A stretch of 64,000 nucleotides of DNA. Origin: Polyangium spumosum (GTDB taxonomy: Bacteria > Myxococcota_A > Polyangia > Polyangiales > Polyangiaceae). Where the stretch lies: the NCBI RefSeq assembly GCF_009649845.1, contig NZ_WJIE01000009.1, positions 32,685 to 96,684 of the forward strand. The letters are read 5' to 3'. Under the pieces are notes generated by a model. The model was not told the DNA's origin, did not search any database, and saw only the letters and a list, made by a program, of their open reading frames with translations. The position numbers and the translations under genes are program-made. Below are positions 25,255-27,868 of the stretch, piece by piece. How positions within the stretch are numbered: the stretch's first letter is position 1; every line of letters begins with the position of its first letter.

Positions 25255-25298
25255 CCGTGGGCGAGACCTGGAGACGCGTGCACGAGACCTTGGGGTCT
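25255..25298 (+). repeat. third (single/partial) copy of the 22-bp repeat; right boundary of the island
   Basis: Sequence cccaccacccgtgggcgagacctggagacgcgtgcacgagacc. Confidence 0.75.
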
Positions 25299-25994
25299 GT
25301 CGAAAACCTGCCCTTCACCCTCCGCGCGCCTCGGAGGCGCGTCGTTTGGTGGCAGCGGATGCGTGTCCCCGTCGCCACCGCGGAGCGTGTGCGCGCGTGT
25401 ATCGACGAGCTCGGCGGCGAGCTTGGAACCGGCTATTACACGTTCGACACCACGGTGAAGGTCGACGAAGAGGGCCGCGTGGTGGAGGTGAAGGGCAAAG
25501 GCGTGCCCCATCCGGAGCTCGCGATATGCATGCGGATCGCGTTGCGAAGCATGACGGTCCCGGAAGAGCTCCTTCGGGTGCGCGCGCTACGCGTGCCCGA
25601 GCCGGCCGCGAAAACGAACGGGCAGGCGCCGGACGAGCCTGGGCTCGTCGGCCACCCCGCGGTGGCCGTAATCGTGGCGGTCGCGCTCGCCGACGTCTTC
25701 ATCGAAGTGGGCACGACCGTGATCGTGCTGGCCGCTGCGGTGGAGATGAGCGGGGAGATCGCGAAGACGGTGCGGAAGGAGGACGATGACGACGACGACC
25801 CGTGTCAAAAGCACGTGAACGCTTGCCTGGAAAAGCCGCTGGCGGACAGACCGGGCAGCGTACATGGAGAAACGAGGTGCAGGATGTGCTGGTTGAAGTG
25901 CACGGGGACGAAGACGAAGGAGTGGCCCAAAAAGGTTCGGCTGACGCGCGGCTACGGCTCTTGCGAGTATTGGTTGCCCGGATGGCCGCGGTAG
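25257..25994 (+). pseudogene. 5'-truncated or hybrid copy of the Cys-rich lipoprotein gene (T1); the signal peptide is replaced by repeat-derived sequence
   Basis: Homology to 26583..27308 begins at ...RVPVATAERVRACIDELGG. The N-terminal about 40 aa (MGETWRRVHETLGS...) are encoded by the 22-bp repeat. No signal peptide or lipobox is present. Confidence 0.5.
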
Positions 25995-26001
25995 GACGAA
26001 C

Positions 26002-26586
26002 ATGAGCACGGAAGAGGAAAGAGTCGACCAGGTATTCTGGGAGTTCGCGAAGGCGAGCGACGCCCTCTTGGTCCGATCGTTGAAGCGGACCCGTACCTTC
26101 GACGAGGTCGTCGACGACCACCGTCGTCTCGAGGCGGATTTCGTGGCGCGCATGGCCGACAGCGCATGGGGTGCGCTCGAGATCAAGCGGCGCATCGCCG
26201 AAACGATCCTCGCGCTAGCGCATGGGAAGCACCCACCCTTCGAGGTCTGCCGCGAGGCATGGAACGATCTCATTCGGCTCGGGTTCACGAATATCGAGAA
26301 AGAATGCACGGTGACAGGATTTTACGCGGACTGCTGCGCGTACGACGAGCAGCCCGCGGAGGGGCTCGCGGTGCTCGAACCCCTGCTCGCCAAGCTCGCG
26401 CGCGGCCTCGACGAAGCCAAGGCGGCGCAGCAATTCACGGAGTTCTACGAAGAAGAGCTCGAGCGCCTTGGCGACATCCGTGACGATCTCCTGGCCCAAC
26501 AAAGAGGCGAGCAGATCCCGGGGAGAAGGACGCGGCGCATCGACGAGGCGCGCCGCAGCTCCCCGAAAGAAGACGGAACCCCGTGA
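26002..26586 (+). CDS. conserved cytoplasmic partner protein (I1) of the Cys-rich lipoprotein cassette
   Basis: 194 aa and acidic. Motifs HPPFEVCREAWNDLIRLGF and DCCAYDE are shared with the 27305..27868 product (about 55% identity). Confidence 0.75.
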   Translation: MSTEEERVDQVFWEFAKASDALLVRSLKRTRTFDEVVDDHRRLEADFVARMADSAWGALEIKRRIAETILALAHGKHPPFEVCREAWNDLIRLGFTNIEKECTVTGFYADCCAYDEQPAEGLAVLEPLLAKLARGLDEAKAAQQFTEFYEEELERLGDIRDDLLAQQRGEQIPGRRTRRIDEARRSSPKEDGTP

Positions 26587-27308
26587 GCGCCAGGGCGAGC
26601 TCGAAGCGCAGCGGTGTACGAACGCTCTTCTCGTTCGGACTCCTCGGCTGCGCGATGCTGGCGCTCGTCCCGCTCGGCTGCGCGGCCACGATCCGCCACC
26701 GCGCGGACGACCGCCCGCGTGTCCCCGCCGCCACCGCCGAGCGTGTGCGCGCGTGTATCGACGAGCTCGGCGGCGAGCTTGGAACCGGCTATTACACGTT
26801 CGACACCACGGTGAAGGTCGACGAAGAGGGCCGCGTGGTGGAGGTGAAGGGCAAAGGCGTGCCCCATCCGGAGCTCGCGATATGCATGCGGATCGCATTG
26901 CGAGGCATGACGGTGCCGGAAGAGCTCCTCCGGGTGCGCGAGCTGCGTTTACCTGAATCGGCCGCGAAAACGAACGGGCAGGGGCCGGACGAGCCTGGGC
27001 TCGTCGGCCACCCCGCGGTGGCCGTGGTCGTGGTTGTCGCGCTCGCCGACGTCATCATCGACGTGGGCACGACCGTCCTCGTGCTGGCCGCTGCGGTGGA
27101 GATGACCGGGGAGATCGCGAAGACGGTGCAGAAGAGGGATGATGACCCGTGTCAAGAGCCCCTGAACGACTGCCTCGACTCACGTCGACAAAGCAGAGAC
27201 GGGGGTAGGTGGAAACATTCAATATGCGTGACTTGCCTCGACAAATGTCGTAACGAGGGCAAATGGCCCGACGGGGTCATGATGTCCAAATGGGAGAGAT
27301 GTAAATGA
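26583..27308 (+). CDS. lipoprotein with hydrophobic segment, Asp tract and divergent Cys-rich C-terminus (T2)
   Basis: GTG start overlapping the I1 stop (GTGA). Signal peptide and lipobox ...TLFSFGLLGC. Conserved core ATAERVRACIDELGGELGTGYYTFDTTVKVDEEGRVVEVKGKGVPHPELAICMRIAL. TM-like stretch VAVVVVVALADVIIDVGTTVLVLAAAV. DDD tract. C-terminus PCQ-x5-C...CxxC-x3-C. Confidence 0.8.
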   Translation: MSARASSKRSGVRTLFSFGLLGCAMLALVPLGCAATIRHRADDRPRVPAATAERVRACIDELGGELGTGYYTFDTTVKVDEEGRVVEVKGKGVPHPELAICMRIALRGMTVPEELLRVRELRLPESAAKTNGQGPDEPGLVGHPAVAVVVVVALADVIIDVGTTVLVLAAAVEMTGEIAKTVQKRDDDPCQEPLNDCLDSRRQSRDGGRWKHSICVTCLDKCRNEGKWPDGVMMSKWERCK

Positions 27309-27868
27309 ACGATGAGCTGGGATCCAGCCGAGAGATGGTAGGAGATGAGCTGGCCTTCTGCAAAGCCGGCGACCGTCTCTTCCTCGATGCGCTGAAGGAA
27401 AAGCTGAGCTTCACCGAGGCCGTCGACGCGTTCCGCCGGCTCGAGGCGGAGTTCGTGGCCCGCGCAGGCGACGATGAATGGGACGTGCGCGAGACGAGGC
27501 GACGCATCGCTGAATACATCCTGAGGGTGGCAGACGCCCATCACCCCCCCTTCGAGGTGTGCCGCCAGGCGTGGAACGATGTAATTCGCCTCGGCTTCTC
27601 GGACAAGTACATAGAATGCGTGATGACCTGGTATTTCGCGGATTGCTGTCGCTACGACGAGAACCCCGAGGAGGGGCTCGCCGTGCTTTTACCGCTCATC
27701 GCCGAGCTCGAGCGAGGGCTCGAAGAAGCGAGGGCGACGCAGAGCTCCATGGAGGAGTTCTACGAATACCACCTCGAACCCCTGCTGAAAATCCGTGACG
27801 AGCTCCTGGCCCAACAAAGAGGCGAACAGATCCCGGGGAAGAGCACGCGGCGCATCGACGAGGCGTGA
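27305..27868 (+). CDS. conserved cytoplasmic partner protein (I2), ATGA-coupled to T2
   Basis: Paralog of I1 (HPPFEVCRQAWNDVIRLGF, DCCRYDE, C-terminal LLAQQRGEQIPGKSTRRIDEA). Confidence 0.75.
   Translation: MNDELGSSREMVGDELAFCKAGDRLFLDALKEKLSFTEAVDAFRRLEAEFVARAGDDEWDVRETRRRIAEYILRVADAHHPPFEVCRQAWNDVIRLGFSDKYIECVMTWYFADCCRYDENPEEGLAVLLPLIAELERGLEEARATQSSMEEFYEYHLEPLLKIRDELLAQQRGEQIPGKSTRRIDEA

Follow-up and report, generated by a model that had tools for sequence, protein, structure and literature searches.

Two tandem cassettes of a putative lipoprotein-borne polymorphic toxin–immunity family in Polyangium spumosum

Among the described systems, the closest to the locus considered here is SitA/SitI, the lipoprotein polymorphic toxins of Myxococcus, which are delivered by outer-membrane exchange and have been found only in traAB-bearing species (PMC5562445, PMC8546572). 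We analyzed a 64,000-nt stretch of DNA from Polyangium spumosum (contig NZ_WJIE01000009.1; the whole stretch is called the window), in which two tandem two-gene cassettes, T1–P1 and T2–P2, encode a lipoprotein carrier with a Cys-rich C-terminal tail (T) and an acidic partner protein (P); T2 and P1 match NCBI proteins of this species (P0001 and P0076, respectively) with 100% identity. We conclude that the locus probably consists of two cassettes of a polymorphic toxin–immunity family.

Like SitA, T is a myxobacterial protein with a type II signal and a lipobox. Both families are defined by a conserved N-terminal region that precedes swappable C-terminal cargo, in both a gene for a cytoplasmic (in our case, candidate) immunity protein lies directly downstream in the operon, and both occupy many loci per genome, often beside mobile DNA. 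SitA1 carries a WHH nuclease (PMC5562445), and so does one member of the T scaffold family, P0192. On the other hand, SitA escort domains are about 375 aa long and fall into six families, whereas the constant region of T comprises about 140 aa after the lipobox and includes a hydrophobic segment; SitA cargo are nucleases, whereas 146 out of 148 T representatives lack a recognised toxin domain and mostly end in 45–65-aa Cys-rich modules absent from Pfam; and the candidate immunity families of T, P and DUF6968, differ from SitI. By size and architecture, T falls outside the SitA families described so far.

Lineage-restricted conserved N-termini with highly polymorphic C-termini are also known for MafB-N of Neisseria and for APD1 and APD2 of Amoebophilus, the latter two, as in T, with the conserved N-terminus placed after a signal peptide together with a lipobox; SUKH- and ankyrin-type immunity proteins, both seen next to T-scaffold genes, are shared with such lineage-specific carriers as well (PMC3482391). 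The N-domain of T is, however, unrelated to these, and neither a hydrophobic segment between carrier and cargo nor the dominance of miniature Cys-rich cargo has been described for MafB-N or APD1/APD2. In prePAAR effectors of the type VI secretion system (T6SS; Tse6-type), a hydrophobic segment adjoins the toxin domain and could insert in the target membrane so as to bring small cargo across, and the immunity protein is cytoplasmic. Similarly, T has a hydrophobic segment next to the cargo, and the partner is cytoplasmic; unlike these effectors, T has no PAAR, VgrG, or Eag genes, carries a Sec/lipoprotein export signal, and has its hydrophobic segment directly N-terminal to the cargo. By this analogy, one may speculate that the hydrophobic hairpin of T serves as a membrane-insertion element for the small cargo. 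A literature search returned no description of the T family, of the function of DUF6968, or of the Cys-rich modules.

Layout of the cassettes and anatomy of carrier and partner

All four open reading frames (ORFs) lie on the forward strand (Table 1), and ORF and alignment checks bore out both their boundaries and the 5′-truncation of T1 as given in the original prediction. The genes overlap by 4 nt at the P1 stop/T2 start (GTGA, 26583–26586) and at the T2 stop/P2 start (ATGA, 27305–27308), as had been proposed, and the gap between T1 and P1 is 7 nt. The proteins T1 and T2 share 73% identity over 199 aa, and P1 and P2 share 62% over 170 aa. The DNA of the two cassettes forms a mosaic: identity between T1 and T2 is 92–100% across the constant part (25368–25787), falls abruptly, with a sharp break near nt ~25790, to 37–53% in the C-terminal module (25790–25994), and amounts to 63–80% in P, which agrees with the suggested tandem duplication with a divergent C-terminus. 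The homology between the T genes starts at residue 33 of T1 (nt 25353), equivalent to residue 43 of T2, and hence the first ~42 codons are gone; residues 1–32 of T1 are unrelated sequence, the annotated start reading out of a repeat element. The NCBI annotation of T1 is 211 aa long (P0012). No copy of the missing 5′ end was found in the rest of the window.

Table 1. Cassette components and upstream mobile DNA, in window coordinates
Feature	Position	Strand	Remarks
T1, lipoprotein carrier copy, 5′-truncated	25257..25994	+	245-aa ORF; no signal peptide or lipobox
T1 C-terminal 6-Cys 'WP' module, subtype ending CEYWLPGWPR	25800..25994	+	Same subtype in loci L002 and L012, each with a single P downstream
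P1, acidic all-helical TPR-like partner, D1-type single domain	26002..26586	+	194 aa; candidate immunity protein for the T1 module
T2, full-length lipoprotein carrier plus tail module	26583..27308	+	241 aa; matches P0001
T2 signal peptide with lipobox PLGC (Cys33)	26583..26681	+	From sequence; near-invariant family positions
T2 constant N-domain, alpha-beta-beta-alpha, 2 conserved Cys	26718..26957	+	From alignment and model
T2 conserved hydrophobic segment, possibly hairpin	27000..27104	+	V/I/A/T-rich; conserved D/E and G/P interruptions
T2 C-terminal 6-Cys 'WP' module, subtype ending MMSKWERCK	27147..27308	+	Model: two helices and beta-hairpin, pLDDT 79–92
P2, acidic TPR-like partner, D1-type single domain	27305..27868	+	187 aa; candidate immunity protein for the T2 module
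Repeat element at the truncation point of T1	25232..25306	+	Contains 24-nt motif GTGGGCGAGACCTGGAGACGCGTG
IS1-like transposase gene	20660..21922	+	Mobile DNA upstream of the cassettes
Second IS1-like transposase gene, inverted copy	23382..24635	−	81–85% identical to the first

The predicted anatomy of T, that is, a lipoprotein with a conserved N-domain, a hydrophobic segment, and a Cys-rich C-terminus, holds for the full-length copy T2. Its lipobox PLGC occupies aa 30–33, and positions G19, L21, P30, L31, G32, and C33 are near-invariant in the family. It is followed by a conserved N-domain of ~80 aa with two invariant Cys, a V/I/A/T-rich hydrophobic stretch of ~35 aa (about aa 140–175) broken by near-invariant acidic residues and by a G/P turn, a linker rich in K/R/D, and a 52-aa tail with eight invariant positions, six of them Cys: C-x6-CL...G...C-x2-C-x3-C...WP...C. 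AlphaFold2 models the tail as two helices with a small beta-hairpin (predicted local distance difference test score, pLDDT, 79–92) and the N-domain as alpha-beta-beta-alpha (pLDDT 62–77) with a weakly TolA-III/TonB-CTD-like fold; the hydrophobic stretch is poorly modelled. In Myxococcus xanthus, lipoproteins sorted to the outer membrane lack Lys at +2 and Ala at +7 (PMC5562445). The residues after Cys33 of T2 are A-A-T-I-R-H (family consensus, C-G-A-K-I-x-Y), and thus the T2 lipobox conforms to this rule, its transfer to Polyangium being an assumption.

T1 and T2 have no match in Pfam or NCBIfam, and a sequence-profile search of the PDB with the T alignment gave none; Pfam scans of 47 family members and 74 isolated modules yielded scattered chance matches only. 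When the alignment of the isolated 6-Cys module was used in a word-index search for the module on other carriers, nothing was returned. A reading of the module as a CS-alpha/beta defensin-like domain was rejected because the Cys pattern does not fit.

The partners were described originally as acidic and cytoplasmic, and we find isoelectric points (pI) of 4.90 for P1 and 4.65 for P2, and no signal peptide in either. The predicted structure of P consists of eight helices (pLDDT 92.8), and the structure search retrieved only generic TPR, NASP, and designed-repeat matches (E about 0.1). P1 and P2 match nothing in Pfam or NCBIfam, and the P alignment has no sequence-profile match in the PDB; hence, the claim that neither T nor P belongs to a recognised family stands. 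We also considered an anti-sigma/extracytoplasmic function (ECF) sigma factor pair and dropped it because there is no sigma partner (P lacks sigma-70 region domains) and the orientation is wrong, the Cys-rich part of T being C-terminal, unlike the HxxxCxxC motif of zinc-binding anti-sigma factors, which belongs to an N-terminal cytoplasmic domain.

Module exchange and module–partner pairing on a common scaffold

Word-indexed searches yielded 75 relatives of T and 39 relatives of P, and every named one is from Polyangium. An exhaustive profile search for the T scaffold gave 359 representatives at 50% identity, the sole named one among ten looked-up clusters being a metagenome-assembled genome (MAG) of Polyangiaceae. 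Thus, among named sequences, the T family is restricted to Polyangium/Polyangiaceae, where it is present in multiple copies per genome: at least ten in P. spumosum, at least eight in P. jinanense, and, in P. fumosum, at least 13 that are nearly full-length along with fragments.

The common scaffold carries at least eight unrelated types of C-terminal tails. These are the 6-Cys 'WP' type with many subtypes, two of which are found in the window; the 6-Cys 'QPxWN...KCPR' variant; 6-Cys 'CxxxxxxCIxKC'; 4-Cys 'PNLNRCLDAAA'; 4-Cys 'CPKEW'; two 8-Cys types; and others. Pairwise distances over 24 T–P pairs of the 6-Cys type average 0.64 in the tail and 0.41 in both the N-domain and P. The C-terminal variability expected of a polymorphic system is therefore extreme in the homologs, and it is modular. 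Within a single subtype, the ratio of nonsynonymous to synonymous substitutions (dN/dS) is 0.35–0.57 for the N-domain, the module, and P alike, and thus the diversity arises via exchange of whole modules rather than via point hypermutation. Truncated copies, partner arrays, and partner fusions are seen as well, with arrays and fragments at loci L002, L022, and L029. At L002 of P. fumosum (1954–3780, reverse strand), a more distant T paralog with the 'CxxxxxxCIxKC' tail has, downstream, a helical ORF of ~150 aa in duplicate and an N-terminal fragment of T; it adjoins a tandem pair of the two subtypes of the window, in reversed order.

The type of the downstream gene follows the type of the tail. 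Outside the window, our survey covered 38 loci of six further Polyangium genomes or MAGs; the count for the 6-Cys 'WP' type includes the window. P lies directly 3′ of T in 30 out of 30 6-Cys 'WP' loci and downstream of none of 12 4-Cys T genes, so that the genetic linkage of the partner, which the original prediction had made a test of its reading, is also observed elsewhere. The two subtypes of the window have a single P, and the remaining 6-Cys 'WP' subtypes, a fused double P, in which the second domain forms a separate subfamily. The 4-Cys T genes are followed, in all ten loci examined, by one to three tandem ORFs of ~150 aa assigned to DUF6968 (PF22302; 31.3 and 36.7 bits vs. the Pfam cutoff of 27), a family not represented in the window. 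These tandem copies, sometimes fused in frame, are located at L010 (5706–7341), L012 (2300–3171, reverse strand), L022 (5706–6755), and L011 (2171–4000). Other tail types have other ORFs downstream: a TPR/zinc-ribbon protein at L037 not detectably similar to P (hhalign probability 13%), an ORF of 112 aa, a helical ORF of ~150 aa present in duplicate, and ORFs of 240 and 77 aa. Divergence of P correlates with divergence of the module (Mantel r = 0.64), including after control for the N-domain (partial r = 0.57, p = 2e-4). No gene, whether for secretion, accessory, or other, is recurrently linked to the cassettes in the 38 loci. With no conserved neighbors and no housekeeping assignment found, a housekeeping role, another refuting condition named at the outset, gains no ground.

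The same scaffold is also used by recognised toxin–immunity pairs. Protein P0192 from a soil metagenome matches T over the N-domain and the hydrophobic segment (hhalign probability 98.6%, E = 1e-15), and its C-terminus scores above the Pfam cutoffs for Colicin-DNase (57.6 bits) and WHH (50.5 bits); the gene overlapping its 3′ end encodes a SUKH-1 protein (82 bits). Similarly, P0255 matches the scaffold (E = 1.2e-12), carries Ntox16 (29.4 bits vs. the cutoff of 25), and is followed on the 3′ side by a gene for an ankyrin-repeat protein (67 bits). WHH and Ntox16 are catalogued toxin domains, and SUKH and ankyrin proteins, catalogued immunity types of polymorphic toxins (PMC3482391). Since both are recognised toxin–immunity pairs, the scaffold is a polymorphic-toxin carrier. 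Such domains occur in distant members, whereas the two modules of the window match nothing.

Taken together with the matching of tails and partners, these pairs, the strongest evidence here, support the toxin/immunity-like reading proposed originally. Several of the features by which Zhang et al. (2012) characterise polymorphic toxins are seen here: a conserved N-terminus with swapping tails, a type-matched downstream gene, and truncated and tandem cassettes. Judging by position and type-matching, the simplest interpretation is that P confers immunity to the 6-Cys 'WP' modules, and DUF6968, by the same genomic reasoning, to the 4-Cys modules.

We suggest the following scheme. T would be exported through Sec as a lipoprotein, with the constant front end (lipid anchor, ~80-aa domain, and hydrophobic segment) probably serving trafficking and presentation, and the exchangeable C-terminal module being the cargo, which in the window is the ~55-aa 6-Cys 'WP' module of two subtypes. 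This module would be located outside the cytoplasm, be delivered to neighboring cells, and be toxic there, whereas the translationally coupled cytoplasmic P would bind and neutralise its cognate module. Recombination at the junction of scaffold and module would create new specificities, with the module and its partner moving as one unit. In the window, T1 lost its export signal with the insertion of mobile DNA upstream; T1–P1 would therefore be a remnant that retains mainly immunity, and T2–P2 is the intact cassette.

A more far-reaching version of this scheme is possible, and we advance it only tentatively. The 45–65-aa Cys-rich tails might form a new class of miniature toxins of several unrelated folds, carried across the membrane by the hairpin; Polyangium, which is outside the known outer-membrane exchange group, might have its own lipoprotein-based kin-discrimination system; and the TPR-like P and DUF6968 might be new immunity families.

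Topology of the carrier and alternative explanations

Several features favor a wholly exported T. The number of Cys is even in 64 out of 66 proteins scored (two in the N-domain; six, four, or eight in the tail), as expected of disulfide-bonded exported domains, and some members have P/T/A-rich linkers. The hydrophobic stretch would be a poor stop-transfer helix because of its conserved D/E residues: the apparent free energy has a median of +3.7 kcal/mol and falls below zero in only 4% of members.

At the same time, a number of observations weigh against a toxin–immunity function. A cluster of K/R follows the hydrophobic segment (4.7 per 20 aa vs. 1.1 per 15 aa before it), and in P0169, a 308-aa metagenome protein from the Joint Genome Institute (JGI), a P-like domain is fused directly behind the hydrophobic segment of the T scaffold. 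Both would fit a C-terminus kept in the cytoplasm of the producer, which sits uneasily with an exported toxin. Signal peptides are absent from the partners, although the Cys pattern suggests an oxidised extracytoplasmic module, and no delivery route was identified. The 6-Cys module has no Pfam or PDB match and no known or predictable toxic activity, and recognised toxin domains are present in only two out of 148 representatives. No positive selection was seen by dN/dS within module types, and the Mantel correlation could stem from physical adjacency alone. Finally, P is less variable than the module (0.41 vs. 0.64), whereas an immunity protein usually diverges no more slowly than its cognate toxin.

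In another protein, P0208 (206 aa), a signal peptide, a 6-Cys module, and a part of P are joined. P0169 and P0208 may be decayed genes or may hint at topology.

The charge cluster, the P-like fusion, and the lack of signal peptides in the partners, as well as the helix-breaking G/P in the segment and the CxxC at a helix start in the model, could mean that the two proteins act inside the cell as a membrane-tethered pair. T would then be a bitopic inner-membrane lipoprotein, with the N-domain outside and a zinc-binding tail inside, where it holds P or is held by it. Rather than an intercellular weapon, the pair would be a device for signalling, sequestration, or abortive infection with a periplasmic trigger, e.g., intramembrane proteolysis. 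We consider this unlikely. Owing to its conserved D/E, the segment makes a poor transmembrane helix; beta-branched residues abound in it, and its low-confidence model is a hairpin. Even numbers of Cys in unrelated modules, including the 4-Cys pattern C-x14-C-x11-C-x15-C, suit disulfides better than zinc, and the P/T/A-rich linkers also speak against a tethered tail. A highly conserved N-domain in about ten paralogs per genome would be odd for sensors, and P has no DNA-binding or sigma-factor features.

The original prediction left the choice between toxin/immunity and effector/chaperone loci, and of the two, the former is favored, as the partner matches the tail type. If P were a cytoplasmic chaperone or export adaptor for the hydrophobic T rather than an antidote, comparable to class II type III secretion chaperones or T6SS Eag chaperones, its being small, acidic, all-helical, and TPR-like, its translational coupling with T, its rather high conservation relative to the module, and the long hydrophobic stretch of T would all be accounted for. 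Yet the type of partner (P, DUF6968, SUKH, ankyrin, and others, all on one scaffold) tracks the tail and not the constant hydrophobic part, which makes this explanation the less likely of the two. Besides, SUKH and ankyrin proteins are recognised as immunity types when so placed (PMC3482391), the signal of T is of the Sec/lipoprotein kind and no type III secretion system or T6SS genes are linked, and P1 is kept beside a T1 that can no longer be exported. Overall, we regard a chaperone role of P as quite improbable.

It is very improbable that the tails are non-toxic polymorphic surface tags, i.e., recognition or adhesion epitopes for self/non-self with an unrelated role for P: tiny, apparently disulfide-rich, non-enzymatic modules with many alleles per genome would suit this, but it leaves the strict pairing with cytoplasmic partner genes unexplained, and the same scaffold bears a nuclease or Ntox16 as cargo, accompanied by SUKH or ankyrin partners, respectively.

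Neighboring DNA and meaning for the family

The location of the cassettes beside mobile DNA, noted originally, is confirmed by the two IS1-like transposase genes directly upstream (Table 1), which are separated by ~1.5 kb of small unannotated ORFs. The motif GTGGGCGAGACCTGGAGACGCGTG has six matches (zero expected) in three same-strand clusters, at 18486–18594, 21963–22050, and 25257–25280. The clusters flank two ~3.3-kb segments with one IS1-like transposase gene in each, and the last copy lies less than 100 nt upstream of the start of the T1–T2 homology; the motif may mark where a mobile element ends or the sites that it targets.

Downstream, a gene for a TetR-family regulator (27893–28477, reverse strand; TetR_N, 58.6 bits) is convergent with the 3′ end of P2, and related loci give no sign of its being a part of the cassette. 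A 936-aa ORF (30645–33455, reverse strand) with matches to MVP_shoulder (55.6 bits), Vault_3 (35.2 bits), and Vault_4 (20.9 bits) is a bacterial homolog of the shell protein of eukaryotic vaults, Major Vault Protein. Scans for promoters and terminators in the vicinity of the cassettes gave no useful information.

Returning to the cassettes as polymorphic toxin–immunity loci, the general plan is already known, whereas the carrier, the miniature cargo families, and the two candidate immunity families are new. The presence of DUF6968 beside the 4-Cys T genes is the first genomic context for this family as a candidate immunity protein. If the proposed reading is true, P, hitherto unannotated, and DUF6968 would obtain their first functional context, namely, immunity, and very small Cys-rich toxin modules of several as yet unrecognised families would exist, small enough for direct synthesis and testing. 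The self-contained two-gene cassettes would then allow one to study how small cargo gets through the envelope with no secretion machine dedicated to it, and lipoprotein-borne polymorphic toxins would extend beyond SitA of Myxococcus to Polyangiaceae, via a short, unusually built carrier.

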